NCBI GenBank assembly: GCA_014846175.1
Contig: RKAV01000041.1
Coordinates: forward strand, 1 to 58,939
Direction of reading: 5' to 3'
Origin: a bacterium
GTDB lineage: Bacteria > Bacillota_I > Bacilli_A > RF39 > UBA660
DNA length: 58,939 bases
Made by a program: the position numbers and the translations under genes. This document shows, in pieces, positions 14,158 to 58,939 of the stretch. Below the pieces are notes generated by a model. That model was given only the letters and a program-made list of their open reading frames with translations. It did no database searches and had not been told where the DNA came from. How positions within the stretch are numbered: position 1 is the stretch's first letter; each line of letters begins with the position of its first letter.

Positions 14158-14188
14158 CGTTATCAACTCTTTCCTTTATAATTTTTAT

Positions 14189-35647: not shown

Positions 35648-36208
35648 ATGAATATCTTTAACTATTTAGAATATAATTCTTTAATTATTTTATCTTTCTT
35701 TTTTATCTCCTTAGCAACACTTATACTAAATATATTAACTAAAGGAAAAAGTAATGATTTGTTTTTTTCAACTTACCGTAGTAGTTTATTAAATCCACTT
35801 ACTTATATAAGATTAGTTACACATATTTTTGGTCATGCTAATTGGAGCCATTTTACTCATAATTTTCTTTATATCTTATTAATTGGCCCAATGATAGAAG
35901 AAAAGTATGGTAGTATTAATCTTTTAATAATGATTTTAATAACTGCTATTATTATTGGAATATTTAATTCTATTTTTACAAAGAATAAAATACTAGGAGC
36001 TAGTGGTATAACTTTTATGTTAATTGTTTTATCATCATTTGTTAATTTTTCCACTAATAAGATACCATTAACTTTTATTCTTATTATACTTTTTTATATA
36101 GTTGATGAAGTGAAACTATTAGGTCAAAAGGATTCTATAAGTCATGGAAGTCATTTCCTTGGAGCTTTATGTGGTTTTATTTTTTCTTACATTATATTTC
36201 CCTCTTGA
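35648..36208 (+). CDS. Rhomboid-family intramembrane serine protease
   Basis: Six TM segments, with the GASG catalytic Ser motif and a His in HFLGALCG. Confidence 0.8.
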   Translation: MNIFNYLEYNSLIILSFFFISLATLILNILTKGKSNDLFFSTYRSSLLNPLTYIRLVTHIFGHANWSHFTHNFLYILLIGPMIEEKYGSINLLIMILITAIIIGIFNSIFTKNKILGASGITFMLIVLSSFVNFSTNKIPLTFILIILFYIVDEVKLLGQKDSISHGSHFLGALCGFIFSYIIFPS

Positions 36209-44106: not shown

Positions 44107-45232
44107 GATAAATCTCCTTATATATTAAATCAAATACTTTCAAAAACTCTTCTACTTCTTCCTTGGTAGTCTTATATGATAAACTTACTCTAATTGATGA
44201 TGATGCTTTTTGTTTATCTTTAGTTAAGGCATATACTAGTTTAGATGGTGTTGTGATGGGACAACATGAAGTTTTAGCTGAAAGAATGATATTATGCTCT
44301 TCAAACTTATCTAAGATAGTAAGAGATTTTTCTCCTATAAGACTAAAGTTTATGATGGATGGTAATGAATTTTCTCTACTGTTGATAGAAACGTTTTTAT
44401 ATTCACTTAGATGTGATTTAATCATATCACCTAATTCTTTTAGATAGTTATATCTTGCTTCTTGATTAGTAAGTGCTATCTCTAAAGCTTTTTCTAAGGC
44501 TAAGACATTGGCAAGTGATGGAGTTCCAGCTCGATAAATGGTTGTAGATTTACCTCCTTCTATTAATGGAGTTAGTCTAACATTTTTCTTTTTTACTAAG
44601 ATACCAAAGTTATCTAAGCCATGAAACTTATGAGGATTTATAGTGATAAGGTCTACATTACTATAATCGATTGTTACCTTTCCAATAGACTGAGTAGCAT
44701 CAGTATGAAAGTGACAGTTAGGATAGTCTTTTAAAATAGATGCTATTTCTTCTACCGGCTGTCTAAGGGCTAGTTCACTATCTACTGAGGTAACACTTAC
44801 TAAAATAGTATCATCTCTTAACATATTCTTTAAAGATTCTATATCTACTATACCTTTATCAGTTACAGGAATAACTTCAACTTCAAAACCAAGACGCTCT
44901 AAACTAACTACTGAGCTAGTAATAGAATTATGTTCTAAGCTGCTAATCAAGATATGTTTACCATAGTTTTTATAACTAAGACATAGTCCTTTAATTGCTA
45001 AGTTATTAGATTCAGTTGCACCTGAGGTATAAATAATCTCATCTTTTAACACTTTAAGCATATTAGTAATTCTTAAAGTACTATCACTTATCATTTTATT
45101 TTCTTCTCTTCCTAGTTTATGAATTGAATTTGGATTAGCATAATACTTTTTAGTAGTATTATAAAAGATATCTAATACTTCATCTTCTACAAAACTAGCT
45201 GCTACATTATCTAAATAAATCAAGTATACCAT
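44093..45232 (-). CDS. Cysteine desulfurase (class V aminotransferase, NifS/IscS-like)
   Basis: PLP-lysine motif NPHKFHG, with GATESNN and a Cys-containing C-terminal loop. Confidence 0.85.
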   Translation of the reverse strand: MVYLIYLDNVAASFVEDEVLDIFYNTTKKYYANPNSIHKLGREENKMISDSTLRITNMLKVLKDEIIYTSGATESNNLAIKGLCLSYKNYGKHILISSLEHNSITSSVVSLERLGFEVEVIPVTDKGIVDIESLKNMLRDDTILVSVTSVDSELALRQPVEEIASILKDYPNCHFHTDATQSIGKVTIDYSNVDLITINPHKFHGLDNFGILVKKKNVRLTPLIEGGKSTTIYRAGTPSLANVLALEKALEIALTNQEARYNYLKELGDMIKSHLSEYKNVSINSRENSLPSIINFSLIGEKSLTILDKFEEHNIILSAKTSCCPITTPSKLVYALTKDKQKASSSIRVSLSYKTTKEEVEEFLKVFDLIYKEIYHGEV

Positions 45233-45265
45233 CCCTTTCTTAAAGTCTATCTTATTATAAAGAGA

Positions 45266-46546
45266 TTAATTTTCACTGTCAACATTGTTTTCTTCATCTT
45301 TTTTATTCTGCTCTTCTGCAAATAGTTTAGCCATTGTTTCACTATTTCTTGTTAATCTTTTTATAGTTAACTCTTCTGCTTTATTATTAGCAAGTCTTAA
45401 GTTTCTATCACTAGAGATTAGGGCATCTTTTGTCTTTTGTAAATGGTCAATTGTTTTATCTATTTCTTCTATTGCTTTACTAAACTTTTCAGATGCTATT
45501 CGATAGTTCTTAGCAAATCCACTTTTGAAAGCATTCATATTCTCTTCAAAGTGAGATATATCAATATTTTGATTTTGTAGAACAAGCATTTCCTTTTTAT
45601 ATTCTAAAGCATTAAGAGCAGCTCCTCTAATTAAGGTTATTAAAGGAATAAAAAACTGTGGTCTAATAACATACATCTTAGGATAACGATAAGAAACATC
45701 TACTATGCCCATATTATAATAATCATTATCAATTTCAAGTAAGGAAACAAGTACAGCGTATTCACATTTTTTCTCTTTCCTATCTTTATCTAGTTCTTTA
45801 AAGAAGTCTTCATTTTTATGTTTAGTAGCTGTCATATCTGCTTCATTTTTCATCTCAAACATGATAGATACAATCTCTGTTTTCTCATCATCATAGTCTC
45901 TAAAGATAAAGTCACCTTTAGAGCCTGTTCTTGCATCATTATCTTTTTCAAAGTAAGCATTAGGAAATAATGGTCTTAAGGTATTAAACTCATTATTACA
46001 ATGTACTTCTAGACTTTCTCCTATCATCTTAGTTGATTGTCTTGCTTTCATATCTTTATAATAAGCAATCATTTCATCTTTATCTTTTAGTTTATTTTCA
46101 TACACATCTTTGATATTTTTTTCTTTTAAGGCATACTCTTTACTATCTAATTCTAGCTGACTTTTCAAACTAGAAATATTCTTATCTTTTTCATTTTCTA
46201 GTTCTTTAATTTTAATATTTAGCTTTGCTATTTCTTCTTTATATTCATTAGCTGTTTTAATCTTAGTATTTTCAATCAAACTATCTTCTAGTTGTTTTTT
46301 ACTTTTTAATTCTTCATTTAGTTTTGTTATCTCTAAATCTTTTTCTTTTAGCATCGTACTTAATTTCTTTTCAAGTTCATTCTCAGCTAGTTTTATTGCT
46401 TGGTTCTTATCTTTTTCATATTGTTCTTGTCTTGTTGCTATCTCATTTTTAAATTCACTATCTCTTACTTGTTTTACGATAGAGTCATATTGTTTCTCAT
46501 CAATTTTAAAAACTGTTCCACAATTAGGACATTTTATTTCATTCAT
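45266..46546 (-). CDS. DUF2130-family protein (N-terminal zinc ribbon + long coiled coil)
   Basis: MNEIKCPNCGTVFKIDEKQYDSIV start typical of DUF2130. Coiled-coil middle and a C-terminal globular part. Confidence 0.7.
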   Translation of the reverse strand: MNEIKCPNCGTVFKIDEKQYDSIVKQVRDSEFKNEIATRQEQYEKDKNQAIKLAENELEKKLSTMLKEKDLEITKLNEELKSKKQLEDSLIENTKIKTANEYKEEIAKLNIKIKELENEKDKNISSLKSQLELDSKEYALKEKNIKDVYENKLKDKDEMIAYYKDMKARQSTKMIGESLEVHCNNEFNTLRPLFPNAYFEKDNDARTGSKGDFIFRDYDDEKTEIVSIMFEMKNEADMTATKHKNEDFFKELDKDRKEKKCEYAVLVSLLEIDNDYYNMGIVDVSYRYPKMYVIRPQFFIPLITLIRGAALNALEYKKEMLVLQNQNIDISHFEENMNAFKSGFAKNYRIASEKFSKAIEEIDKTIDHLQKTKDALISSDRNLRLANNKAEELTIKRLTRNSETMAKLFAEEQNKKDEENNVDSEN

Positions 46547-46560
46547 AGTTTTACACCTTT

Positions 46561-46735
46561 CTATTTAGTTTTTTCTTTAAGATCTTTAAACTTAGATTTA
46601 AAAGTATCTATATAATCTTTACTAATAATAATTTTATTATCTTCATTAGCTTTTACTGTTAGATATTTATTTCTTTACTTTCTTAGTTTTAGTACTACAA
46701 CCATTAACAGTTAAAACTATGATTAAGATAAGAAT
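46561..46735 (-). pseudogene. Decayed small lipoprotein gene (no start codon, internal frameshift)
   Basis: The minus strand reads LILILIIVLTVNGCSTKTKKVKK* (lipobox L-T-V-N-G-C) without an upstream ATG. After a frame change it reads NKYLTVKANEDNKIIISKDYIDTFKSKFKDLKEKTK*. Confidence 0.4.
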
Positions 46736-46742
46736 AAGCTAA

Positions 46743-46979
46743 CTAATTTTCTTCATTACTTACTCCTTCATATTTATATCCTAAAGAGTTGATAGTACTT
46801 TCTACCACTTTGATATTTAACTCTTTATCACTTAAAATGGTAACACTATTATTATTAAGATTTACTTTTACTTTTCTTATATCATCTAAACTTTCTAGAG
46901 CTTTAGTTACTTTATCAGCACAGTGGTTACAACTCATTCCTTCTACTTTAATTATAGTTTTAATCTTCTTATTAAACAT
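46743..46979 (-). CDS. copZ: Copper chaperone CopZ (HMA domain)
   Basis: GMSCNHCADKV metal-binding motif in a 78-aa protein directly downstream of copA. Confidence 0.9.
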   Translation of the reverse strand: MFNKKIKTIIKVEGMSCNHCADKVTKALESLDDIRKVKVNLNNNSVTILSDKELNIKVVESTINSLGYKYEGVSNEEN

Positions 46980-46982
46980 TTC

Positions 46983-49172
46983 TTATTTCCCTTCTAATTT
47001 TATTTTTCTAAGTCTTAGAGCATTGATTACAACTGTTAAACTACTTAAAGTCATAGCAAAAGAAGCAATCATTGGATTCATTATAATATTAAATTTAGCA
47101 AATAGTCCTATAGCAATTGGTATCATTAAGATATTGTAAAAGAAGGAAAAGAAAAGGTTTTGTTTTATATTTCTAATAGTTTTCTTACTTATGATAAATA
47201 GATTAAGAATACTTTCTAAATTATCATTCATTAAGATAATATCACTAGAATTATTAGCTATATCAGTACCACTTGCAATTGCTACACCAATAGTAGCAGT
47301 AGCAAGACTTGGGGCATCATTTATCCCATCTCCTACCATCATTACTTTTCTATTTTCTTTTAATAATTCTTTTATAATTGTTGTTTTCTCTTTAGGAAGA
47401 AGTGATGCTTTTACTTCATCAAGTGCTAAATCTTTACTAATAATATTAGCTGTTTCTTTATTATCACCAGTTAACATTAAAACTTTTTTATTACTTTTCT
47501 TTAACTTTTTAATAACTTCTCTAGCATTACTTCTTAGCGTATCTTTAACACCTATTAAAGCGATTACTTTTCTTTCTTCTACTACATAGATTACACTATT
47601 ACCCTCTCTTACTAGTCTATTAAAGTCTAGTGAATGAATATCATAAATCATTAATTGGTCTACTAACTTATCATTTCCTAGATAGTATTTCTTATCATTA
47701 ATAGTACCACTTACTCCTAGTCCTGCTATATTATTAAATTTAGTTACAGTAAGATCTGATTTACCCTTAAAAGCTTTAGCGATAGGATGCGTTGATTTAT
47801 TCTCTAAACTTGTTACTAATTCTAATATTTTCTTATCAGGATAATCACTATAATTATAAATAGTTGATACTTGTAAATTACCATAAGTTAGAGTACCTGT
47901 TTTATCAAAGACAATAGTATCAATACTGTTAAGTAATTCTAATGATTCACTATTTTTTATTAATAAACCTTTCTTAGCACAGAATCCTTCAGTAACAATA
48001 ACAGCTAAAGGGGTGGCAAGACCAAGAGAACAAGGACATGCTACTACTAAGACAGTTACAAATCTAGTTAAAGCTATATCTAAATTATTTGTTAATAGAT
48101 TAAAAATTAAGGTTAGAAAAGCGATAAGCAGAATACTTGGTACAAAGATAGAACTTACTTTATCTGCTACTTTAGCAATAGCTGGTTTAGTATTAGTAGC
48201 TTCTACTACTAGTCTTACTATTTCGGAGATAGTTGAATCTTTACCAATATTAATTGCTTCATAGGTTATATAACCATTAGTATTAATACTACCTGCTATT
48301 ACTTTATCACCTATTTTTTTCTTGATTAGTTTACTCTCTCCAGTTATAAAAGCTTCATCAAAGTAAGCACTTCCACTGATAATATTACCATCAACTGCTA
48401 TTTTTTCACCTGGTTTACAAATTAAAGTGTCGTGTTTTTTAACTTCATCAATACTAATTTCTTTTTCCCCTTCTGTAGTTTTCAATAAAGCTTTAGTTGG
48501 AGTCACTTGAACTAGTTCTTTAATAGCTTCCCTCGTTTTAGATTTACTCTTAGTATCAATAAATCTTCCTAGTTTGACAAAGTAGATAACAATACAAAAT
48601 GATTCATAGTAAAGACTTTCTACATAACTTGTTTGTCCTTTAATTATCATAATGGTATTAAAGATACTATAAATAAGACTTGCTAAAACACCAATAGAAA
48701 CTAAAGTATCCATATTAGGTGATTTATGAACAAGATTTAAATAACCACTTTTTAGAATATCTTTTCCATAGTAAAGATAAGGAAGAGATAGTATTAGTAA
48801 AGTAATAGCATAATTAACAGGATACTTTTCCATATTAAGAAGTGGTATAATAGAAAGACCTACCATGTGTGACATAGAAATATAAAGTATTAAAATAGAA
48901 AGGATAGTATAAAAGACAAATAATCTTTTATTAAGTTTCTCTTTCTTAAAGACCTTTTCTTCTGAATAAATGCCAAGACTTTTATACCCTGCTTCTTCAA
49001 TAAATCTTTCTAAATCGTTTAAAGATAGTGTTTCATCATACATAATAGTAGCAGTTGCTAAGACAAGATTAACTGAAGCATCTACTACTCCTTTTTGTTT
49101 ATTTAAATACTTTTCTAATGCCGATGAACAAGCGCTACAACTCATTCCTTCAATACTTAAAATTACTTTCAT
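46983..49172 (-). CDS. copA: Copper-translocating P1B-type ATPase CopA
   Basis: N-terminal HMA motif GMSCSACSS, CPC in the TM region, DKTGTLT and GDGINDAP. Confidence 0.95.
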   Translation of the reverse strand: MKVILSIEGMSCSACSSALEKYLNKQKGVVDASVNLVLATATIMYDETLSLNDLERFIEEAGYKSLGIYSEEKVFKKEKLNKRLFVFYTILSILILYISMSHMVGLSIIPLLNMEKYPVNYAITLLILSLPYLYYGKDILKSGYLNLVHKSPNMDTLVSIGVLASLIYSIFNTIMIIKGQTSYVESLYYESFCIVIYFVKLGRFIDTKSKSKTREAIKELVQVTPTKALLKTTEGEKEISIDEVKKHDTLICKPGEKIAVDGNIISGSAYFDEAFITGESKLIKKKIGDKVIAGSINTNGYITYEAINIGKDSTISEIVRLVVEATNTKPAIAKVADKVSSIFVPSILLIAFLTLIFNLLTNNLDIALTRFVTVLVVACPCSLGLATPLAVIVTEGFCAKKGLLIKNSESLELLNSIDTIVFDKTGTLTYGNLQVSTIYNYSDYPDKKILELVTSLENKSTHPIAKAFKGKSDLTVTKFNNIAGLGVSGTINDKKYYLGNDKLVDQLMIYDIHSLDFNRLVREGNSVIYVVEERKVIALIGVKDTLRSNAREVIKKLKKSNKKVLMLTGDNKETANIISKDLALDEVKASLLPKEKTTIIKELLKENRKVMMVGDGINDAPSLATATIGVAIASGTDIANNSSDIILMNDNLESILNLFIISKKTIRNIKQNLFFSFFYNILMIPIAIGLFAKFNIIMNPMIASFAMTLSSLTVVINALRLRKIKLEGK

Positions 49173-49312
49173 AATTAGCTTTTCCTTTCAATTTTTATTA
49201 TCTATTTCTTATATAATATTAAGTCTACGAATAATAAGGTTCTTTTTATATATTTTACTTTGATACTACTCCCCACGTCTTATGGATATCTCTATTCCAT
49301 CTTTACTACCCA

Positions 49313-49341
49313 ATTATAGGGGGCGAGGATATTTATGTCAA
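49313..49341 (-). promoter_or_regulatory. Consensus sigma-A promoter of copA-copZ with overlapping C/G-tract operator-like element
   Basis: The minus strand reads TTGACA (49341..49336), 17 nt of spacer, TATAAT (49318..49313). The -10 is embedded in CGCCCCCTATAATTGGGTA, a CsoR-operator-like C-tract/AT/G-tract pseudo-palindrome. Confidence 0.6.
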
Positions 49342-49376
49342 TAGTAAGAAAGAAAAAGGCCATATTAATGACCTAA
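49342..49376 (-). terminator. Terminator of the dam gene
   Basis: The minus strand has stem AGGTCAT / ATGGCCT (one G:U pair) with loop TAAT, followed by TTTTTCTTTCTT. It starts inside the stop codon. Confidence 0.5.
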
Positions 49377-50233
49377 TCTGTTTCATCAAATAACTTTTTA
49401 TTTTCGTAATTAGTTATAATTACTTCTTCTACTTTTCCCCTTTTTTTCCCGTTAGCATTAATATTTCTTTTAGCTTCTATTATATGGATATTGTAGTCTT
49501 TATATAAATCTTTTATTAGTGGTGTATTATAATTAGATAGCATTACATAACACCCTCTATCAGCTAGTTCTTTATATACTTTAGCAAGTCTAATTTGTTC
49601 ATCTTTACCAAAGCCATTTTCTGTATAACTAGTAAATATTTGTTTTTCTGAATCATAAGGTGGATCAAAGTAGATGAAGTCATTCTTATTAGCAGTTTTA
49701 ACTGCTTCTTCAAAATCTGTATTTAATATGGTTATATCATTAAAGTTTAAATATGAATGAATAATACCAAGATTTTGTCCTTCATAAGTATTTACTTTTA
49801 TTTTTTTACCAAATGGTACATTAAATTCATTCTTACTATTAACTCTATATAAACCGTTGAAACAAGCTTTATTTAGATAAATTGTTCTAGCCGCTCTTTT
49901 ATAATCAGCCATTCGTTTAAATTTAGCTTTATCCCTATCTTTATTTCGTATCTCATAATAATAATCTTCACTATGATTTGTCTCATGATGATTTAATTCA
50001 TTACACATCTTAGTAAACTTTGTTTCATCTTTTATACAGTTAAAGATATTCATTAATTCTTCATTATAATCATTTATCACTGCTTTTCTTGGTGATAACT
50101 CAAATAATAAAGCTCCTCCACCAACAAATGGCTCATAGTATGTATTATATTCATCAGGGGCATATAGTTTTAGTTTATCAATTACTTGTCTTTTACCACC
50201 AGCCCACTTTACAAATGGTTTTCCTTTTATCAT
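49373..50233 (-). CDS. dam: Dam-family DNA adenine-N6 methyltransferase (GATC-type), no recognisable cognate endonuclease
   Basis: FVKWAGGKRQ, EPFVGGGALLF (SAM motif I) and DPPY (motif IV), in the alpha-class order. Confidence 0.9.
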   Translation of the reverse strand: MIKGKPFVKWAGGKRQVIDKLKLYAPDEYNTYYEPFVGGGALLFELSPRKAVINDYNEELMNIFNCIKDETKFTKMCNELNHHETNHSEDYYYEIRNKDRDKAKFKRMADYKRAARTIYLNKACFNGLYRVNSKNEFNVPFGKKIKVNTYEGQNLGIIHSYLNFNDITILNTDFEEAVKTANKNDFIYFDPPYDSEKQIFTSYTENGFGKDEQIRLAKVYKELADRGCYVMLSNYNTPLIKDLYKDYNIHIIEAKRNINANGKKRGKVEEVIITNYENKKLFDETD

Positions 50234-50281
50234 GTATTTGCCTCCTAGTTAAGTTTCATATCAATTATTGTATCAAAAATA

Positions 50282-50311
50282 TTACTAATTGTCAGTACTA
50301 ACAATTAGTAA
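50282..50311. repeat. Perfect 11-bp inverted repeat between the 871-aa ORF and dam
   Basis: TTACTAATTGT (50282..50292), 8-nt loop, ACAATTAGTAA (50301..50311). The minus strand continues TATTTTT, so it may be a terminator or an operator. Confidence 0.5.
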
Positions 50312-50401
50312 ATATGATAATTCATAATGATACAGTAAATTTTCAAATTGATGACTACTAATGCATTATATTGTTTACTATTTACTTGCTAAAAAACATA
50401 T

Positions 50402-53017
50402 CTAATTTATAGCATTAGTATTTTTCTGTAATTTTTTTTCTAATACTTTTGGTTGTTCCTCTTTATTTAACAATGTCATATAACTATTAAACTCTTCTAT
50501 TGCTCTATAATCATTTTTTAAGCATTCGCCAATTCTTTCTTGATATGTTCGGGCTATATACCAATCCTTAGAATAATAAACATTTTTTATTGAATATTTA
50601 CTTATTGGTATATAATCTGTAGGATTAATTGAGTAATTTATAGAGTTTATTACGTTAATTACATTTTCATCATTATTATTATATCCATCTATAAAAAAAT
50701 CAGCAAATTTTATTTCATTCCTAGGATCCATATATGAAACATCTGGATTTTTTGACTTAATATTTCTAAGGTCAAAATTATTATCTTTATATACAATATC
50801 CAAAGTTCTGTGATAGATATCTGTATCTTTATATACCTCATCATCTTTTTCAAATATAGTAGGAGTTGGATAATCTTTTGGAAAATGAGTTGTATTTGGC
50901 TTTAAGTATGAATCACTACCAATACATGCTAAATTAATTGGTTCATTACTTTGTTTAGTAATTTCTACTATCTTTTCTATTCCTTCTTTAAATGTAGTAG
51001 ATATTAAACGACCATTAGCTTCTATTTCTTTATCTACACACTCAATACTATTAGCTATTAGTACATTCCCATTTCTTTTCAACGGACAAAAAGCAGCAAT
51101 ATCACCTGATTTATCATATATTATCAATATTCTACCATTTCTACAAAGTGCTGCATGTAACAAATGATTATGTGCTATATCAAGTGTCCTAATACAACAA
51201 TTAGCTTTATATCCTAGCTCAAATATTTGTGGGTCATCTAATTTCATAGTTTCATAAGTATAACCTCTTGTAGAAGTTCCTTTTACATAAGGGATACTAG
51301 ATTCAACTCTTTTTTTCATTTGTGAATATATTTCAACGATTTTTTTTAATATTTCATTATTACTATTCTGTGTTTTATTTCCCAAAATAATATTTTCTAA
51401 AAAACTATTATTATTTAATAAGTAATTATCTGGAGTTATTATTTTTCTATCTATATCATATTTTTCTGTTTCTAATATTGCATTTACTTTCTTTAATGTA
51501 ATTTTATTATGACATTTTTCTAATATTTCATCATAATTGTTATACAAGTAATACCATGTTTTATATAATTCAGAATTCTTATCATTAAGTATATTTATAA
51601 AATGATTATTATTTGGTGTTTCAAACATAAAGTTAATAAATCTTTTATCTATAATAGGTAAGAATTTACTTCCTTCAGCTTTCATTTCAACTCTTGTTAT
51701 ATCAGTCTTAGCAACATTATCTAAAAACATTTTGTTATATTGCCCATATTTACCACTTAATATTTCTATGCTTCTTTCATATCCAAATATAAAGTACATT
51801 TTGATACATAACCCATATATTGTAGACAATTCATCTTGAGTCTTATCTTCTAAAAATTTAGATAATTTATTAATATGTTTAACATTTACTTTAGATAATT
51901 GTTCTAGAGTCATGCCATGAAGATATCTAGCGTTAGGAAGTGCAATATTAAATTTTAAATAAAACATTAATTTTAAATCTTTTGTTATTTCATCATAATT
52001 ATTAGTTAAATAATTTATATCTCTGTAACTTATTAAACCATTATTTAAATTTCTTTTTAATGTGTTATAGATCATCTCTTGATTAACAGAACCATTTTTT
52101 AATATACGACCAGTTAAATATTTTAAAAATTTCTCTTTAATTGTCTCTTCCTGATTTTCATTTAATAAGATATCATATATTTCTTTCTCTAGGTTAGCTT
52201 GTCTATGAAAGTTTGGATGTCTAAATTGATTTTCTATTTTTTCTCTTATTAATTCGTCTCTAGCTTTTATTTCAGCAAAGAGTTTTTCAAACGACTTACC
52301 ATTCTTAACTATATTATCTGATATATATTTTTTTATATCATTATTATCAATACTATCATTAATATAATTAAGAAAAAATAACTCTTCTGAATTTAATTGT
52401 TTCATTATACTGCTATTAATTCTATCTTTATCAGAACCAAATAGGACTCCTTCTATATTGCTATATCTTTCTCTAAAATCGGTAGGAAGAAGCACCTCCC
52501 TAGTATAAAAATTTAATTTTTCTATTATTTTTAACTGTCTGTCAGTAGGCAATAAGTTAAATTCTTTACTTTTTACTACCTCATCAAAGACTTTTTTTAA
52601 ATCGTATGAATGGAAAAATTTGTCTTCAACTTTATTTTCATTCATGACAATATATAGAAAATATTTATTACTATATATTTGTTTCTTTATAGTTTGTGAT
52701 TTTATATCTTTGTTCAATTTTTCAATATTTTTTATCGTCTGTTCAGTGCAAACAAAGTTATTTAAACTTAATGTTCCTAAAATTAATATTTTTTGAATTT
52801 TATCATTAGTCCATAATTTATTTTGCATAGTGAAACCTGAACTTCTAAAAGTAGAATTGATGGTATTACTATCTAAATTTGAAATAAATTCAATTATACT
52901 CGAATCTATTATTGTATTTATTTGTTCATCTGTTAATTTTTTTAAAGTATTAATCAATTTTTTAGTTTTATACGATCTAATTTTTTTAAGATTTATTTGT
53001 GTAATATTGCTTTGCAT
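50402..53017 (-). CDS. Large ORFan protein (871 aa), Asn/Lys/Ile-rich helical N-terminus and a Cys/His-bearing C-terminal domain
   Basis: Uninterrupted ORF. The ATG at 53017 (MQSNITQ) follows a GAAGGAGAAA RBS (track TTG start 53032). The C-terminal block is GYKANCCIRTLDIAHNHLLHAALCRNG...AAFCPLKRNG...NSIECVD. I could not assign a family. Confidence 0.7.
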   Translation of the reverse strand: MQSNITQINLKKIRSYKTKKLINTLKKLTDEQINTIIDSSIIEFISNLDSNTINSTFRSSGFTMQNKLWTNDKIQKILILGTLSLNNFVCTEQTIKNIEKLNKDIKSQTIKKQIYSNKYFLYIVMNENKVEDKFFHSYDLKKVFDEVVKSKEFNLLPTDRQLKIIEKLNFYTREVLLPTDFRERYSNIEGVLFGSDKDRINSSIMKQLNSEELFFLNYINDSIDNNDIKKYISDNIVKNGKSFEKLFAEIKARDELIREKIENQFRHPNFHRQANLEKEIYDILLNENQEETIKEKFLKYLTGRILKNGSVNQEMIYNTLKRNLNNGLISYRDINYLTNNYDEITKDLKLMFYLKFNIALPNARYLHGMTLEQLSKVNVKHINKLSKFLEDKTQDELSTIYGLCIKMYFIFGYERSIEILSGKYGQYNKMFLDNVAKTDITRVEMKAEGSKFLPIIDKRFINFMFETPNNNHFINILNDKNSELYKTWYYLYNNYDEILEKCHNKITLKKVNAILETEKYDIDRKIITPDNYLLNNNSFLENIILGNKTQNSNNEILKKIVEIYSQMKKRVESSIPYVKGTSTRGYTYETMKLDDPQIFELGYKANCCIRTLDIAHNHLLHAALCRNGRILIIYDKSGDIAAFCPLKRNGNVLIANSIECVDKEIEANGRLISTTFKEGIEKIVEITKQSNEPINLACIGSDSYLKPNTTHFPKDYPTPTIFEKDDEVYKDTDIYHRTLDIVYKDNNFDLRNIKSKNPDVSYMDPRNEIKFADFFIDGYNNNDENVINVINSINYSINPTDYIPISKYSIKNVYYSKDWYIARTYQERIGECLKNDYRAIEEFNSYMTLLNKEEQPKVLEKKLQKNTNAIN

Positions 53018-53383
53018 AGTTTTCTCCTTCAAAAGTAAGATATATTATAACATTAAACTATATGAAATTACACATAAATAAAGAAATTAAGAAGCCGTTA
53101 AAGGAAAAACAAGATTATTATGGAAAAGATAAAAAAATATCACAAATTGAATCCAGTTCCCAGTTTTATTGTAAATGAACATGTGGGATTTTTAAGATTT
53201 AGAAAGAAGGAAAGTACTCCTGAAATGGATTGTCCATACTATGGTGGTACTATGTTTTCTCTTGATTTAAGCTAAAAAATTGAAGTTTTGCTTTAATATT
53301 TTTGTTGGTTGGTTTAATTTTAATAAACCCACTTTTCTTTCAGTAATGATCTAAACGCACTTTCCTTATATATAAAAAAGATG

Positions 53384-53413
53384 ATGACCTAGTCCATTAA
53401 AGGACTAGGTCAT
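53384..53413. repeat. Hairpin repeat copy 1 (terminator of the 297-aa ORF)
   Basis: ATGACCTAGTCCATTAAAGGACTAGGTCAT with an 11-bp stem, A6 before and T6 after. It matches copy 2 at 27/28 positions. Confidence 0.85.
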
Positions 53414-53416
53414 TTT

Positions 53417-54310
53417 TTAATTATTAACTTCTCTCATGACATAAACAAGATCTTTATGCCAATTTTCGTTATGATTAATTTTCTTAATAATATACTTTGA
53501 AGAAAGTAAATCACCTTTTGACATTTTTGATAGTTCCTCCCAATTTTTTACTGGTATCACGTAAGTAGCATTTCCATAATAGCTTGATTCTAGACAACAA
53601 TACTTATTAAATATAAATGCATAATAGCCTGTAAACCCGCCTGTACCACAGAATATATAAATAGGATTAAATTTATTTAACGTCTCTATTCTGTATTCTT
53701 CAAATCCTTTATTCTTACTTTTATGTTTCTTTTTATCTTTTAAAGATTTTATATCTATTTTTATGCCTTTAGGAAGAATTTCCCAATTACATCGTTTAAT
53801 TAATAAATTATCTTTGACAAGATCTAAATCTTCATTAAAGATTTCGCAATAACCAAAGACTTCAAGAAACATATTAATTATCTGTTTTAAAAGACTTTTA
53901 TTAGAATAATCTTTTATATTAGCTATTATAAATTTCCTATCATTTTTATCTTTTGTTAATACCATTTCTATATTTGTTGGACTTACTTCTATTTTAGGAT
54001 ATGCATATCTGTATACATCACTATATCCGGTATGTTCATATCCACCCCAATCTAGTAAAGACCATTCTCTTGTTGTTATATATCTATATACTTTTTCACT
54101 ACTTTTATCTGCATATGAATAACCTTCAGTATTTCTTCTACAATTAATCCCATAATGTGGTGAAGGTTCTATTGATAATCCTTCTTCAAATTCATCTATT
54201 CCTAATTTTTTATATTCATCTTCTGTAATTCTAATTCCAATATAGATTTTCTTACTATCAATTTTGTCTAAAAAATCTATGGAATTAATACGTTTCTTTG
54301 CAATAACCAT
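53417..54310 (-). CDS. ORFan protein, 297 aa
   Basis: Intact ORF with a strong AAGGAGG RBS, 48 nt downstream of the 58-aa gene. No recognisable motif. Confidence 0.7.
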   Translation of the reverse strand: MVIAKKRINSIDFLDKIDSKKIYIGIRITEDEYKKLGIDEFEEGLSIEPSPHYGINCRRNTEGYSYADKSSEKVYRYITTREWSLLDWGGYEHTGYSDVYRYAYPKIEVSPTNIEMVLTKDKNDRKFIIANIKDYSNKSLLKQIINMFLEVFGYCEIFNEDLDLVKDNLLIKRCNWEILPKGIKIDIKSLKDKKKHKSKNKGFEEYRIETLNKFNPIYIFCGTGGFTGYYAFIFNKYCCLESSYYGNATYVIPVKNWEELSKMSKGDLLSSKYIIKKINHNENWHKDLVYVMREVNN

Positions 54311-54358
54311 ATTTTTTCCTCCTTAGCTAGTAAGTAGGAACTACAAGCAAACAACTAA

Positions 54359-54535
54359 CTAATTATTTTCTTTTCTAACACCTTTAAACTTGTCACCGCT
54401 AGTTTTAACATCCATAAATTTTCCAGTGGATGTGTTTCTTTTTACATACAAGTTTGTCTTACCATTAAATGTTTGAGAACGGCCTTTTACTGCTCCAACT
54501 CTTGCATTATCACCTTTTGGTTTATTTACTGCCAT
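54359..54535 (-). CDS. Small basic protein, 58 aa (missed by the ORF track)
   Basis: The ATG at 54535 lies 5 nt after AGGAGGTG. Translation: MAVNKPKGDNARVGAVKGRSQTFNGKTNLYVKRNTSTGKFMDVKTSGDKFKGVRKENN*. Confidence 0.7.
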   Translation of the reverse strand: MAVNKPKGDNARVGAVKGRSQTFNGKTNLYVKRNTSTGKFMDVKTSGDKFKGVRKENN

Positions 54536-54794
54536 AAAGCACCTCCTATTTACATACTCGGAGATTCCTTTTTCTAAAAAATACCTATTTTTTGATCAAA
54601 GACTTGCAATTTTTTTAAATTATTGCTAAGATATTTATAGAACAAGGGTGTCTACTGTTTATCTCCTGTTCTTCATATAGTTTACTTGTGTATTCTATAT
54701 CTTGTGTTGCTATGTAGTTCGTACCTACATATGCATAGAGTATTTGTATTGCTAGCAAATACTTTTTTATTTGCCAAATAATCTATGCAACTTA

Positions 54795-54823
54795 ATAGTA
54801 TCATATTCTTCAAAAATAAGCAA
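54795..54823 (-). promoter_or_regulatory. Candidate promoter giving a ~250-nt leader for the 58-aa/297-aa operon
   Basis: The minus strand reads TTGCTT (54823..54818), 17 nt of spacer, then TGaTACTAT extended -10 (hexamer 54800..54795). Confidence 0.4.
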
Positions 54824-54886
54824 TTTTTGTCGTAAAAAAATCTGCTTTTTTGTTATTTTTATTAGTTTTCTTAGTTAATATATCAA

Positions 54887-54914
54887 ATGACCTAGTCCAT
54901 TAAATGACTAGGTC
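54887..54914. repeat. Hairpin repeat copy 2 (terminator of the RloB-like gene)
   Basis: ATGACCTAGTCCATTAAATGACTAGGTC with a 9-bp stem. It lies directly 3-prime of the minus-strand stop at 54920. Confidence 0.85.
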
Positions 54915-54919
54915 TCTTT

Positions 54920-55531
54920 CTATTTTTCTAATTCATCTATTATTTGATAAACATCTGAGTGAGGATTAGCTTCAACTGATTGAATATCTCTATTATTTTC
55001 TTTTTGATATTTTTCCAATTTTTTAGCATTATCATATGCTTTTTTAGTTTTATCAACAATAATTGGATACATATTACAATTCTTAGTATATTTTGGAAAA
55101 TGCTCTTTTAATCTTTTTATTACTGCATCGCTATTCATGTTAGCAGTCGTATATTCATAATGTAATAAAAACCACGTTTCTATACAAGGTGAAGATGTAA
55201 TTACGACTACACTATTATTTTGTGCTAATTTTATTGTTTCTTTTATTTGAGTGTTTTTACTAGAATTAACATCTGTATCAAATATACAAAATGCTCTATC
55301 ATCATCTTCTAATACTAATCTTAATTCTTTCGCTTTATCTATTGTTTGTTTAACTAAATTTACTGGATCTGTTTCATTACCAGGAACTACTTTAATTGTA
55401 TAATTTTTATCTATACCTTTAAAGCTATCAAAATAATTTCTTTCAGTTTTATTTTTACCCTCATAAGCTACTAATATTACTCTTTTTGATCTACGGTCAT
55501 TTCTATTTCTTTGTCTATCTCTACTGCTCAT
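54920..55531 (-). CDS. RloB-like TOPRIM-type protein (AbiLii / split OLD-nuclease module)
   Basis: VILVAYEGKNKTERNYF (Toprim Glu), AFCIFDTDVN (DxD) and SSPCIETWFLLHYEY match the RloB pattern ILV.CEG.KTE..YF / vFD.D / NPCFE.WlLLHF. Confidence 0.8.
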   Translation of the reverse strand: MSSRDRQRNRNDRRSKRVILVAYEGKNKTERNYFDSFKGIDKNYTIKVVPGNETDPVNLVKQTIDKAKELRLVLEDDDRAFCIFDTDVNSSKNTQIKETIKLAQNNSVVVITSSPCIETWFLLHYEYTTANMNSDAVIKRLKEHFPKYTKNCNMYPIIVDKTKKAYDNAKKLEKYQKENNRDIQSVEANPHSDVYQIIDELEK

Positions 55532-55533
55532 AT

Positions 55534-56778
55534 TTACTCTTTAAAGTCATCAAAATTATTTACTAAGAATGGCACAGCACCATATCTTCCTAATAAATAA
55601 CCCTTCTCAACATTTTCAGATTTTCTTATAGAGAAGTCATCTAAAGCATATAATGTACTTTCTCCATTTTCTGGATTCTTTTCCGTAAACCATATTTGAT
55701 CTCTTCTTAGTAACTCTAAATCTAATAAATTAGTATCATGTGTATTAAATATTAACTGAGCATTATTTTTGTTCAAATCTGGATCATTAAATAATTCAAC
55801 TATATATTTGACAATATATGGGTGCAAGCTTTTATCAAACTCATCAATTAATAATACTTTACCATTATCAATTACATCTTTAATAACTGGTATAAATGAA
55901 AATATTACTTGTGTACCTAATGATTCTTCCGAAATATCAAAATCATATTTATCGCCATTTGCAATATGAGTTGTATTTACTTTAAACATAGGTGTATTTG
56001 TTGGTATAAATGGTCTCATAATATCAGGTAATGTACTAATTAATTCATCCGTCATTTTTTCTTGTATAACCTTATAACCTTTAATATTAAAATCTGCTTT
56101 TTCTAAAAATTTAAGTGCAAATTTTTCTAAAGTTTTATCCTTATCATTATAATACATATTATAAGAATAATTATTTAATTGTTCATATGACATTACTACG
56201 CCTAGTTTCTCAGTTAAAAAATCAAATGCTGGTTTTGTTTTTTCAAAATTCCAATTAGTTGCTGTTGTTATAAAAAATTTATTGGCAGTATTCTTTTCTT
56301 TAACATCATTTAAAAATTTTTCATCACTTACATTAAATGAATATTCATTTATATTTTCTCTATTAAATATTTTAACTGGTCTGCCATTTGGATAATATGT
56401 TAAATATTCTTTATAAATATTTTTAGCATCTGCTTCAAACCCATATATATACCTTACACCATCAATTAGAAATTTTATTTCAAACCCACTTGGCTTCTTT
56501 ATAGTTTCTTTATCTAACTTAAATGGTATTATTGGTAACAAAACATTTGGATTAATAAAATTTGATTGTCTTATCATATTACTTATTAAAGCTAATATTT
56601 TAAATAAATTACTTTTACCAGATGCGTTTGCACCATATAATGCAGTCATCTTTAATAGCTTTTCATTTCCTATACTTGTAAAATTATCTTCCAAAGTATT
56701 GTCTGAAGATGCAATCATTGAAAAAGTATTTTTTTCTTTAAATGATAAAAAATTTGTAATGCTAAATTCTATTAACAT
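55534..56778 (-). CDS. ABC/SMC-like AAA ATPase (AAA_15/21 type; AbiLi/AriA-like)
   Basis: Walker A GANASGKSN, Walker B LLIDEFDKSLHP, then QLIFNTHD. The ATG at 56778 (MLIEFSITNF) follows an AGAGGAG RBS. The stop is 2 nt from the RloB-like start. Confidence 0.8.
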   Translation of the reverse strand: MLIEFSITNFLSFKEKNTFSMIASSDNTLEDNFTSIGNEKLLKMTALYGANASGKSNLFKILALISNMIRQSNFINPNVLLPIIPFKLDKETIKKPSGFEIKFLIDGVRYIYGFEADAKNIYKEYLTYYPNGRPVKIFNRENINEYSFNVSDEKFLNDVKEKNTANKFFITTATNWNFEKTKPAFDFLTEKLGVVMSYEQLNNYSYNMYYNDKDKTLEKFALKFLEKADFNIKGYKVIQEKMTDELISTLPDIMRPFIPTNTPMFKVNTTHIANGDKYDFDISEESLGTQVIFSFIPVIKDVIDNGKVLLIDEFDKSLHPYIVKYIVELFNDPDLNKNNAQLIFNTHDTNLLDLELLRRDQIWFTEKNPENGESTLYALDDFSIRKSENVEKGYLLGRYGAVPFLVNNFDDFKE

Positions 56779-56802
56779 ATAAATCATCTCCTCTTTGTAT
56801 AT

Positions 56803-56832
56803 ATTATATGCATATTTTTGAATAAAAATCAA
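56803..56832 (-). promoter_or_regulatory. Candidate promoter of the ATPase/RloB pair
   Basis: The minus strand reads TTGATT (56832..56827), 18 nt of spacer, TATAAT (56808..56803). Confidence 0.5.
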
Positions 56833-56905
56833 TTTTTTAACAATTATTATTAATTTTTTGTATTTTTTTTGCAATTTTTACATTTTATTTAGCTATTTGT
56901 ACCAG

Positions 56906-57220
56906 CTAGTAATCTAATAAATAATTAACTTCAGAAAGAAAATCATCTATTTTATCTATTAAATCATTATCTAAATAAACATGCTTGCAATCTTTTATTA
57001 ATCCATGTTCATCTTTTGGTAATTCATCTCTTGCTTTTTCAAACTCAGTATAAGTATATAATTTGCCATTACATAGAATCCTTACATTATTATCATATCC
57101 TTTATATAATTCTCTACGCCAGTTCTTTATATCATCTAAAACTGATAGTATTTTATGTCTAGAAGCCACTATTTCCATTTCTCTAGAACTTTCAGTTTCA
57201 AATACGTATTTATCATTCAT
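56906..57220 (-). CDS. Hypothetical 104-aa acidic protein
   Basis: Intact ORF whose start overlaps the upstream stop by 8 nt (ATGAATGA). Confidence 0.6.
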   Translation of the reverse strand: MNDKYVFETESSREMEIVASRHKILSVLDDIKNWRRELYKGYDNNVRILCNGKLYTYTEFEKARDELPKDEHGLIKDCKHVYLDNDLIDKIDDFLSEVNYLLDY

Positions 57221-57413
57221 CTTTTTTATCCTCCTTCTCTACTTCAGATAATTCTTCATAATCTTCTTCATATCCTAATCTTCTTAAATAATCTTTTCCA
57301 CCATCAACTGCAACTGCACCACATTTACAAAATTCAAAATCATGTCTATAAGTAGATTCAATAACATCTCCACATTTTTTACATTTAATTTTATTAACTA
57401 TTATCTTATTCAT
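57213..57413 (-). CDS. 66-aa zinc-ribbon protein with acidic tail
   Basis: CKKCGDVIES...HDFEFCKCG supplies four Cys ligands. The start overlaps the AbiEi-like stop by 8 nt (ATGAATAA). Confidence 0.6.
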   Translation of the reverse strand: MNKIIVNKIKCKKCGDVIESTYRHDFEFCKCGAVAVDGGKDYLRRLGYEEDYEELSEVEKEDKKDE

Positions 57414-58032
57414 AAAACCACTCCAATAAATCCATTACTTCTTTTTTAATACCCATTTTATCTGCATACTTATAAAGTTTAACAAGATCTTTATCTTTTC
57501 TCTTAATATATTCTCTTAAACTATATTTAATATGTTCATTATCCATTCTTTTTTTAGACCTTATAATATCACATATACATCTTTCAATATCATACACTCT
57601 AACAATATTTCCAAATGGTGTTTTGACTTCTGTTAATCCTAATTCATATATATCATCAGAAACATAAAACACATTATGATTTTTCAACTTAATACTATTA
57701 TAATTTTTCTTAACAGTTACATCATATTTACTATCAGGAACTTTTATAGAAAGTCCATGAAAGTACAATGCAGTCATATGAGAATATATAATACCTGGCA
57801 AATTCAAATTAAGTACATAATAAGAATCTGGAAATTTATTAACATCAAGATATATTCCATTATCAAGTTTTTCTATTATTCCTCTATCTAACATAATATT
57901 AAGGTAGATTCTATGAATACCTAATTCAGTTAATTGCTTAGATGTAATGTATCCATTATTAATCTTCATAAGTTCTTGTATTATCTCAATATTACTTTGA
58001 TCTTTAAACTCTTTTATAGTCATCTTTTCCAT
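57406..58032 (-). CDS. AbiEi-like (type IV TA antitoxin-family) wHTH regulator
   Basis: The N-terminus IIQELMKINNGYITSKQLTELGIHRIYLNIMLDRGIIEKLDNGIYLD fits the AbiEi_4 N-terminal domain pattern. The ATG at 58032 has better RBS spacing than 58038. Confidence 0.65.
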   Translation of the reverse strand: MEKMTIKEFKDQSNIEIIQELMKINNGYITSKQLTELGIHRIYLNIMLDRGIIEKLDNGIYLDVNKFPDSYYVLNLNLPGIIYSHMTALYFHGLSIKVPDSKYDVTVKKNYNSIKLKNHNVFYVSDDIYELGLTEVKTPFGNIVRVYDIERCICDIIRSKKRMDNEHIKYSLREYIKRKDKDLVKLYKYADKMGIKKEVMDLLEWFYE

Positions 58033-58207
58033 ATACATTCTCCTTTTGACTTTTACACCTTTATTTTATATTTTATCAGTATAAATGTCAATATCATTAT
58101 AAAAATAAAATACTAATAATTTATATAAAAATTAGTATTTTTTTAAATTTACATACCTAGCTTAGTACCTAAAAATATTTAATAGGTTTAAACACTTTAA
58201 AATAAGC

Positions 58208-58232
58208 AAAAAAAGTGGAGCCTTTCGGCTCC
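58208..58232 (-). terminator. Strong rho-independent terminator (GAAA tetraloop)
   Basis: The minus strand reads GGAGCC-GAAA-GGCTCC followed by ACTTTTTTT. Confidence 0.7.
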
Positions 58233-58356
58233 TTCAGGGGGCGGTTAGAATTCACGTACTTCAAAGTTTATATAAATACTTTTTCGTTTATTTAAAAGGA
58301 TTTAAAAGTAAATAAAATAACTAAATATTATAAGAATTTTAAATTCTTGGTAGTTG

Positions 58357-58393
58357 AAAAGGTAGTTGAGATATTTCTTAACTACCTTTTTTT
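58357..58393. terminator. Bidirectional terminator downstream of the right-edge gene
   Basis: Stem AGGTAGTT / AACTACCT, with A4 before and T7 after. Confidence 0.55.
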
Positions 58394-58435
58394 ATGACAA
58401 GATGACAATATTACTGATGGTGCCTCAAACAAGTG

Positions 58436-58939
58436 TCATTTTGTCATTTTTTCTTCTTTAAACTCATTTATTAATGCTATAAATTCATCATCAGACATTT
58501 TTACATATATTCTACTACAGTATTTTTTTTGGAATAACATCACATTATGTACTGATAAACCACAATTTTTAATTATTAATATTTTCCTTTTTCTAGTTGC
58601 TTTTTTATCCTTATTATTTTTAAAAAATATTCTAATAAATAGTACTTCATATTTTGAATACAACTCTATTAAATATTCTAATGGTATAATTAATATTAAA
58701 TATACAATTGGAATCATGAAACTTATAAAAGTATTCAAAACATTTAATTCTTTATACTCTCTTAATCCAAGTTTAAAAGTTTCATAAAAGAACCAAATAC
58801 TAATAATTACAAATATTGTTTGCATAAACTTATGTACAATTTTGTATTCTTCTTTTCTTTCAGCAACAGCATCAACTAATTCTTCAAAATTATCTTCACC
58901 AATGTACTTTATGAGTTCTTGTGGTTCTGATTTAATTTT
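58436..58939 (-). CDS. Membrane protein of unknown function, C-terminal part (ORF open to the right edge)
   Basis: The 38 codons upstream of the track ATG (58825) are in frame and stop-free to 58939 (KIKSEPQELIKYIGEDNFEELVDAVAERKEEYKIVHKF-MQT...). There are two TM segments. Confidence 0.55.
   Translation of the reverse strand, partial: KIKSEPQELIKYIGEDNFEELVDAVAERKEEYKIVHKFMQTIFVIISIWFFYETFKLGLREYKELNVLNTFISFMIPIVYLILIIPLEYLIELYSKYEVLFIRIFFKNNKDKKATRKRKILIIKNCGLSVHNVMLFQKKYCSRIYVKMSDDEFIALINEFKEEKMTK

Follow-up and report, generated by a model that had tools for sequence, protein, structure and literature searches.

Background

The abortive infection system AbiL, which is grouped with PARIS, combines an ABC ATPase with a TOPRIM/OLD-like nuclease (PMC13064643, PMC11464382). 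RloB and DUF4276 are TOPRIM-superfamily effectors (PMC13064643, PMC11464382, PMC12065111), and RloB has the catalytic E and DxD residues of that superfamily (PMC12065111). Besides such named systems there are the PDCs, 145 untested candidates that came out of 'guilt-by-embedding' (Payne et al. 2024; bioRxiv 10.1101/2024.01.29.577857), and in the Zorya system the EH-signature domain of ZorC binds DNA (PMC11946911). Relatives of AbiL and of one PDC occur in the DNA described here, a bacterial contig of 58,939 nucleotides (RKAV01000041.1, assembly GCA_014846175.1; hereafter the window). Its last part, positions 49342-58939, had been proposed in a reading made without database searches (the sequence-only reading) to be a defence or mobile island that starts immediately to the right of the copA promoter. 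By copA-anchored loci of other genomes, the host belongs to an uncultured lineage of human-gut Bacilli with kinship to 'Clostridium sp. CAG:451'.

With known defence islands, hot spots and integrative mobilizable elements the region shares the clustering of defence genes, the replacement of cargo between conserved flanks, and transposase, integrase and relaxase genes in its allelic versions. It differs from defence islands and integrative mobilizable elements in that the window has no compositional signature, att sites or integrase, and in that one flank gene, encoding an 871-aa protein, borders variable DNA at several unrelated positions. The region contains a gene pair that resembles lactococcal AbiL, as well as PARIS AriA/AriB, RloAB, HEC-01 and MADS3-4, in consisting of an ABC ATPase gene (Walker A and B) and an adjacent gene on the same strand for an RloB TOPRIM-like protein (Glu, DxD). 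Whereas the lactococcal AbiL is found on a plasmid, the predicted AbiL system described here is chromosomal or borne by an integrative mobilizable element, and lies inside a five-gene block that is headed by AbiEi, DUF7695 and orf104 and followed by a further gene pair, S38 and orf297.

A strain-variable locus next to copA

With high probability, positions 49342-58939 form the end nearest copA of a chromosomal hot spot that varies from strain to strain and is built as a mosaic of self-contained cassettes. The comparison set consisted of the copA-anchored loci of other genomes, with breakpoints determined by blastn (loci from this and the other searches are numbered L001 and onwards). Four relatives carry 96-98% identical DNA over copA, dam and the 871-aa gene, with different cargo at three indel points, which lie at 49.2-49.35 kb, at 50.32 kb, and from ~53.06-53.1 kb onwards. 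At the leftmost of these, a GmrSD type IV restriction gene separates dam from the cop promoter in L002. At the second, which lies between dam and the 871-aa gene (50316-50332), L001 carries a 4.5-kb insert with GmrSD, an N6/N4 (DpnA-like) methylase and a DpnII endonuclease, window position 50316 corresponding to L001 7367 and window position 50332 to L001 2822. From the third point onwards each genome has an entirely different content: upstream of the 871-aa gene L003 carries genes for an HNH type IV-like enzyme, a NUDIX protein of type PDC-S07 and two methylases, among others, in L006 the interval from the 871-aa gene to recG holds nothing but a D12 methylase and an HNH protein, and L002 retains the AbiL block with 53100-54834 replaced by a degenerate, two-piece transposase-like open reading frame (ORF), putatively IS30-like from its translation. 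In L004 only the last 90 codons of dam remain; the idea that a DpnI-type cassette replaces dam in this genome, as it does in pneumococcus, was rejected, as no Pfam matches were found. In L007 and L009, with CopA proteins 63% and 80% identical, synteny ends at ~49200-49220.

The alignment of the copA flank with its relatives thus shows that the gene order is not conserved (GmrSD in L002, the 4.5-kb insert in L001, loss of synteny in L007 and L009), and profile searches return defence assignments (AbiLi 2e-97, AbiLii 1e-22, AbiEi 3e-60, PDC-S38 4e-30, type II methyltransferase 1e-95) and not housekeeping ones. Because the order beside copA varies and the searches give no housekeeping identities, the reading of the region as a defence or mobile island stands, and the alternative cargo is likewise defence-related (GmrSD twice, DpnII endonuclease with methyltransferase, the HNH type IV-like enzyme, NUDIX PDC-S07). 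The starting point needs a correction. Cargo does vary immediately right of the copA promoter, but the four close relatives whose DNA extends over dam and the 871-aa gene all have both, at 96-99% identity, and because these two genes are backbone in close relatives, the free exchange of cargo sets in only near 53.1 kb.

The cop operon promoter (49313-49341, minus strand) is a perfect sigma-70 match (TTGACA-17-TATAAT, 12/12) with a C-rich, operator-like spacer, and it is kept in L001-L006 and in L029. It is the left edge of the variable DNA; in L002 the junction of the GmrSD insertion lies directly upstream of its -35 element. The switch in content that the sequence-only reading placed here is borne out, as the genes to the left are housekeeping genes (HSP90, SepF, DivIVA, RelA/SpoT, FtsW, ClpB, a NifS-like aminotransferase, DUF2130, CopA/CopZ) and those of restriction-modification, abortive infection and mobile elements begin exactly upstream of 49313-49341.

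The DNA between this promoter and copA varies as well. In L001 and L004 the promoter drives csoR (Trns_repr_metal, 5.5e-28), which together with a gene for an HMA-DsbD_2 membrane protein fills the interval to copA (L001 8398-9998, L004 3025-4625). In the window (49173-49312), L002, L003 and L006 both genes are lost and the promoter is followed by ~85 nt of the decayed 5' end of csoR, with its ATG changed to ATA; in the window the promoter lies 141 nt before copA with this remnant in between. Because csoR is lost and only its ~85-nt 5' remnant is left, copA lacks an adjacent repressor in these genomes.

On the right the window ends inside the 3' part of a gene for a hydrophobic membrane protein (58436-58939, minus strand; the ORF is listed as 58436-58825). 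Its 129 aa are a minimum, as the frame has no upstream in-frame stop and is open to the end of the window, and the protein has 294 aa in L029; profile searches gave no family match for it. L029 is 99.987% identical to window positions 43417-58873 (15.4 kb) and continues, beyond the membrane-protein gene, into small ORFs and genes for ASCH, UDG, a UMPH-1/HAD nucleotidase, an HTH regulator, AAA_25 and a Mob_Pre relaxase. A terminator hairpin after the membrane-protein gene (58217-58232, minus strand, from a terminator scan) marks a cassette boundary, and similarity of the window to L024-L028 begins at 58228. What L024-L026 share with the window is limited to a 650-bp segment of this gene (58228-58876). 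On its far side these loci have recG, a tyrosine integrase abutting recG, Mob_Pre and AAA_25, and on its near side a second, broken integrase followed by the arrangement of L003. The right boundary of the hot spot is probably at the integrase next to recG, judging by these other contigs, so that the hot spot may be taken to span cop to recG and to accumulate integrative and mobilizable elements. In L024 the second tyrosine integrase is in fragments (13052-14172; a 120-aa piece and a 208-aa Arm-DNA-binding piece), which shows that integrative elements have accumulated in tandem between recG and the 871-aa gene. The last 66 nt of the window (58874-58939) differ from both L029 and L024 while the reading frame stays open, and the break at 58874 reflects either recombination within the membrane-protein gene or a join made during assembly.

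The hot spot would accordingly run from the cop operon to recG in related contigs, with each cassette bringing its own promoter, its own terminator, or both. Its parts in the window would be a solitary Dam, the 871-aa backbone gene, a 1.5-kb S38/orf297 cassette, the five-gene AbiEi-AbiL block, and a membrane-protein gene that leads into the backbone of a mobilizable element. Strains could exchange such cassettes through integrative elements and through recombination in or close to the terminator hairpins. While the island itself is of an ordinary kind, the S38/orf297 gene pair looks like one that has not been described before, and like a candidate new defence module. The mapped locus, from the cop operon to recG, offers a place to read strain-level turnover of defence genes in metagenomes, in poorly studied uncultured gut Bacilli.

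The genes of the locus

All ten ORFs that the sequence-only reading had listed were confirmed at their positions, all on the minus strand. Its statement that most genes are unassigned did not hold, as profile searches name six of the ten (dam, AbiLi, AbiLii, AbiEi, DUF7695 and PDC-S38), and neither did the ORFan labels: the 871-aa gene is a backbone gene with homologues throughout its lineage, and the 58-aa and 297-aa proteins belong to large families. What had been called a split OLD-family ATPase/TOPRIM pair is indeed a two-gene pair, for which AbiL is the more precise name.

The dam gene (49373-50233, minus strand, 286 aa) is followed by a terminator-like hairpin (49374-49357, minus strand, terminator scan). 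Its product matches PF02086 (1.5e-60), TIGR00571 dam (4.7e-83) and, as its best PADLOC model, the type II restriction-modification methylase MTase_II (1.4e-95), and the translation has the FxGxG (EPFVGGG) and DPPY motifs. By these motifs and matches it is a Dam/DpnM-type N6-adenine methyltransferase of the GATC family, its specificity being predicted from the family. The window holds no cognate restriction endonuclease; a DpnII endonuclease (PF04556, 1.4e-73) occurs only in L001, where it and an N6_N4 methyltransferase precede a dam whose product is 98.6% identical to that of the window. As this sibling retains a complete cassette, the orphan Dam of the window is the methylase of a DpnII-type cassette with the endonuclease missing. 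The likeness to the DpnII cassette of Streptococcus pneumoniae (DpnM, DpnA, DpnB) lies in the D12-class methylase and, in L001, in the N6_N4 methyltransferase and DpnII endonuclease beside dam, and the difference is that the window holds the methylase only. The gene order of the pneumococcal cassette also differs from that in L001 (DpnA-like, DpnII, Dam). The locus thereby provides a natural case of the decay of a DpnII-type system, with Dam left as an orphan methylase. From its family, Dam could be expected to keep GATC methylated and so to protect against DpnII-type enzymes that circulate in the population, such as that of L001.

The next gene (50402-53032, minus strand) encodes 876 aa if translation starts at a TTG; with the ATG at 53017, the start called in L029, the product has 871 aa. 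Its product has no Pfam or NCBIfam match, and profile searches of the Protein Data Bank (PDB) with its family were empty; it has 138 full-length homologues (53-95% identity) in this lineage. An AlphaFold2 (AF2) model with a pLDDT of 83 shows a long helical N-terminal region followed by alpha/beta domains, with a putative GNAT-like fold near residues 580-710, and in a Foldseek search of the PDB the top 25 matches to the model were nearly all GNAT acetyltransferases, with weak E values of 0.01-0.06 and TM(target) of 0.3-0.57; the best of them had E ~0.01 and a probability of 1.0. Homologues at 76% and 55% identity are found in other chromosomal settings, without dam or copA. MmeI, DUF3800, AAA_13 and TnpV lie directly upstream in one of these settings, and an SLFN-like helicase, AbiL, MazG and UDG in the other. 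The gene repeatedly borders variable DNA, as if it marked an insertion hot spot, and it is a lineage-conserved backbone gene and not cargo. In one of the neighbourhoods of these homologues from related genera (L010-L015) it directly follows a DUF87 gene, the counterpart of which lies at 36187-37971 in the window. In L006 (6133-8748) the gene is split into ORFs of 232 and 557 aa. The split, due either to decay into a pseudogene by frameshift or to a sequencing error, hints that the gene may be dispensable.

The AbiL pair consists of AbiLi (55534-56874, minus strand, 446 aa from a TTG; the start is likely the ATG at 56778, which gives 414 aa and was called in L029) and AbiLii (54920-55531, minus strand, 203 aa), located 2 nt downstream on the same strand. 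AbiLi matches PF13304 (AAA_21, 4.7e-42) and PADLOC AbiLi (2.3e-97), with Walker A (GANASGKS) and Walker B (LLIDEFD) motifs in its translation, and AbiLii matches PF13707 RloB (2e-38) and PADLOC AbiLii (1.4e-22), with the conserved Glu (VAYEGK) and DxD (FDTDV). By gene content, as read from the two translations, this is a complete AbiL system of an ABC ATPase and an RloB/TOPRIM protein. OLD class 1, in which ATPase and TOPRIM are fused in one protein, was rejected, as there are two separate ORFs and PADLOC Old gave only 1.5e-6, on the ATPase. By analogy with PARIS, AbiLi may act as an ABC-ATPase sensor that holds the TOPRIM nuclease AbiLii inactive until a phage cue releases it, leading to abortive infection.

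Upstream lie three translationally coupled genes on the minus strand, AbiEi (57406-58038, 210 aa), DUF7695 (57213-57413, 66 aa) and orf104 (56906-57220, 104 aa), the middle one overlapping both of its neighbours by 8 nt; the AbiEi-like regulator with two tiny coupled ORFs had been recognised as such in the sequence-only reading. The 210-aa protein matches PADLOC AbiEi (3e-60) over 190 of 198 positions and PF13338 at 1.4e-5, so that by sequence it is an AbiEi-family winged-helix regulator or antitoxin, and it would be expected to repress its own operon. A promoter-like site precedes it (58063-58091, minus strand; TTGACA-17-TAAAAT, 11/12 match). As in the AbiE type IV toxin-antitoxin system, a full-length AbiEi heads the operon; in contrast to that system there is no AbiEii, the AbiEii/DUF1814 nucleotidyltransferase model matching none of the ten ORFs of 49342-58939, and a zinc ribbon and an acidic 104-aa protein follow instead. 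The zinc ribbon is the 66-aa protein, a four-Cys DUF7695 (PF24749, 5.7e-29; phrog_7042) with partial homologues in phages and small mobilizable plasmids. The 104-aa protein (pI 4.9) has 53 homologues and no family match in Pfam, PADLOC, NCBIfam or PHROG. At 92% identity its homologue sits in the same five-gene AbiEi-DUF7695-orf104-AbiLi-AbiLii block in another context, whereas homologues at 61% identity are coupled with an XRE-HTH gene that precedes Abi_2 or AAA_13 effectors. In L118-L121 (12447-13844) the five-gene block is followed by a gene for a 465-aa DUF8370/DUF8371 protein in place of S38 and orf297.

Downstream of AbiL lies the pair S38 (54359-54535, minus strand, 58 aa) and orf297 (53417-54310, minus strand, 297 aa), with the Shine-Dalgarno sequence AGGAGG before the former and a strong one before the latter. 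The 58-aa protein is strongly basic (pI 10.6) and matches PADLOC PDC-S38 from position 1 to 57 of 57 (4.2e-30) and phrog_12550 (6.9e-25); neither the searchable literature nor the supplements to the PADLOC embedding paper mention PDC-S38. The match to PDC-S38 is thus end to end, but the PADLOC entry is a single-gene candidate and here it is paired with a gene for a ~300-aa protein. Homologues of the 297-aa protein with at least 59% identity to that of the window all have PDC-S38 as their partner. The candidate listed as a single gene is usually half of a gene pair. PDC-S38 homologues of 60-71% identity also occur solo in the lysogeny or early regions of prophages, namely Streptococcus phage Javan48 (L123 4001-4171) and Staphylococcus phage phiSP119-3 (L124 4001-4171); a 292-aa gene near such a homologue was considered as a relative of orf297 and rejected (hhalign probability 0.04).

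The 297-aa protein has no match in Pfam, NCBIfam, PADLOC or PHROG. It has 186 close homologues, and an exhaustive profile search found 2037 clusters (50% identity, E<=1e-3), 311 of them at E<=1e-30, nearly all of ~300 aa and without fusions; none of 58 diverse members matched Pfam. Its AF2 model (pLDDT 83) comprises two alpha/beta domains with a disordered, Lys-rich linker between them, and neither Foldseek searches of the PDB and BFVD with this model nor profile searches of the PDB gave a credible fold match. The partner of PDC-S38 thereby stands for a very large family (at least 2,000 clusters) that lacks both a Pfam model and a fold match. Five of the 58 members match the PADLOC ZorC model (best 2.5e-5) with no match to Pfam EH_Signature, ZorC (8R68) came up at rank 10 with a weak probability of 0.28 in Foldseek, and E241, H280 and W284 are invariant in the family alignment (A2). 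These are weak hints of kinship to Zorya ZorC, a lead and not a finding.

The neighbourhoods of orf297 were examined in 80 metagenome loci. Nearly every locus with enough upstream DNA has a tiny basic ORF, almost free of acidic residues, 50-120 nt upstream on the same strand, and the sequence class of this ORF tracks the divergence of the orf297 homologue. Where the homologue is at least 59% identical to that of the window the small ORF has 57-58 aa and is of the PDC-S38 type, at ~50% identity it has 24-25 aa (MAKKKCNKSVHVKAHNRCRPGTHKK), and at 34-39% identity it has 41 aa (MAVHHGGKVGSAAKKLASKSTSK...). The other neighbours are mostly genes of defence or mobile elements (type I/IIG and type III restriction-modification, AAA_13, an AAA+/subtilase pair, PLD-helicase, SMODS, integrases, relaxases and ArdC-type polyvalent proteins).

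In the window the pair is bracketed by two copies of a hairpin terminator, one after orf297 (53384-53413, minus strand) and one after AbiLii (54889-54914, minus strand), both found in the terminator scan. The copies (ATGACCTAGTCC-ATTAAA-GGACTAGGTCAT) form a direct repeat of ~30 nt (D1) with a spacing of 1503 nt, and two were observed where none was expected. L002, which is without the pair, has only the AbiLii-side copy. Two copies in the window and one in L002 suggest that the S38/orf297 unit is gained or lost as a cassette with its own terminator. Breakpoints of similarity coincide with both of these terminators as well as with that at 58217-58232.

In more than 40 of ~76 metagenome loci the small basic ORF and the orf297 homologue (34-39% identity) directly follow a gene for an AAA_15/21 ATPase (HEC-01A 8e-29, AbiLi 9e-22) and one for a DUF4276 TOPRIM-like protein. 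These loci share DNA from ~100 nt before the ATPase gene to the stop codon of orf297, with 76-98% nucleotide identity in at least 8 flanking contexts, and the unit of ATPase, TOPRIM, 41-aa ORF and orf297 is a mobile four-gene cassette of 3.3 kb within one lineage. It has sharp borders in L092 (3590-6900) and ~40 other loci (L016, L058, L065-L114), and its flanks include ArdC-polyvalent/relaxase elements, RtcB, flagellin and an integrase.

Alternative explanations

Several observations weigh against the reading of the region as the end of a hot spot with mobile defence cassettes. The ~3.7 kb of dam and the 871-aa gene are fixed in close relatives and core-like. Neither G+C nor GC3 shows a significant compositional or codon shift in the island, and no integrase, relaxase, tRNA or recognisable att repeat was found inside the window. 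A nucleotide search of the 9.7-kb region against deposited plasmids and phages (50,697 phage records) returned no match. The window also leaves its twin contig L029 66 nt before its own end, so that the continuation described above is predicted for this genome from L029, and the mechanism of AbiL itself is still undefined (PMC13064643).

A decayed prophage would account for the PHROG matches of five genes, mostly to families of unknown function, and for the prophage homologues of PDC-S38 in Streptococcus and Staphylococcus, but there are no capsid, tail, terminase, portal or lysis genes, the phage records hold no nucleotide match, the orf297 family has a single match in 2.9 million viral contigs, and the neighbouring backbone in L029 is plasmid-like or like an integrative mobilizable element (Mob_Pre, AAA_25); I regard this origin as highly improbable. 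Much closer to an even chance, if somewhat short of it, is that everything from ~53.1 kb rightwards is the cargo end of one integrative mobilizable element beside recG, mobilised in trans by a conjugative element. The run of L029 into AAA_25 and Mob_Pre genes points this way, as do the tyrosine integrase that abuts recG in L024-L026, followed by Mob_Pre and AAA_25, and the nearly empty interval between recG and the 871-aa gene in L006. Against it, no att direct repeats were found between the recG/integrase junction and the region upstream of the 871-aa gene, the comparison of the junction in L024 with the window or L029 giving only chance-level 12-20-mers; a tRNA integration target was not found either. 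The cassettes swap independently of each other (S38/orf297 against a transposase remnant, the AbiE/AbiL block against genes for 589 and 165 aa in L024), the fragmented second integrase of L024 implies tandem accretion, and the integrase was not seen on the window's own lineage. The mosaic of separately exchanged cassettes remains the explanation that I prefer for the locus as a whole.

Within the mosaic, the boundaries between functional units can be drawn in different ways. AbiEi, DUF7695 and orf104 may form a toxin-antitoxin-like or regulatory head module, which either controls the AbiL genes or is independent of them. Their coupling by 8-nt overlaps behind a near-consensus promoter, the conservation of the entire five-gene block elsewhere, and the change of partners of orf104 (XRE-HTH, Abi_2, AAA_13), which is typical of toxin-antitoxin and regulatory modules, speak for it; on the other hand there is no AbiEii toxin among the ten ORFs, orf104 is acidic, unlike most toxins, its family is tiny with 53 matches, and in L013 an AbiL at 52-54% identity has no such head; I consider this division less likely than not. 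More doubtful still is that AbiLi, AbiLii, S38 and orf297 are one four-gene defence system, in which the 297-aa protein and its basic partner bind nucleic acid and target or license the TOPRIM nuclease. It would fit the metagenome loci in which the pair directly follows ATPase and DUF4276 genes, the common borders of this cassette in different flanks, the same gene order in the window with a different ATPase/TOPRIM subfamily (AbiL, RloB), the AbiLi-like genes beside the pair in L072, L076 and L086, and the failure of HEC-01 alone to protect E. coli. But the AbiL block occurs without S38 and orf297 in L002 and L118-L121, and homologues of orf297 at 48-64% identity have no ATPase/TOPRIM pair beside them, their neighbours being genes of type I/IIG or type III restriction-modification, AAA_13, an AAA+/subtilase pair or housekeeping genes. 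AbiLii and S38 lie 384 nt apart in the window, with a terminator hairpin between them, the 41 loci with the cassette represent few related lineages and not 41 independent events, and the solo PDC-S38 homologues in Streptococcus and Staphylococcus prophages argue against an obligatory four-gene system. In a wider form, the tiny basic ORF and the ~300-aa protein of the orf297 family could be a new and widespread anti-phage module, acting alone or as a nucleic-acid-binding sensor or targeting pair for split ABC-ATPase/TOPRIM nucleases of the AbiL/HEC-01 type. I consider this a speculative proposal with the odds against it; if true, it would redefine the single-gene candidate PDC-S38 and could explain why HEC-01 alone was inactive when tested.

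Composition and minor features

The sequence-only reading had also pointed to long spacers, a lower G+C and proteins rich in Asn, Lys, Ile and Tyr, and these points are borne out only weakly. Spacers of 127-399 bp are indeed present, though their length does not differ significantly from that in the core (p=0.22), and G+C is lower in 49173-58939 (24.4%) than to the left of 49173 (26.9%), though not significantly so when compared per gene (Mann-Whitney p=0.12), with GC3 unchanged. The fraction of the four amino acids is 0.30-0.39 in the island proteins, compared with 0.32 in CopA and 0.38 in CopZ. An Rfam scan of 46-58.9 kb (E<=1) gave only a chance match resembling a microRNA and no known RNA family in the spacers. 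The 399-nt spacer upstream of the 871-aa gene holds an ORF of 51 aa on the plus strand (53120-53275); it belongs to no family and may not be a real gene, and it was gene-called on L029-L034.

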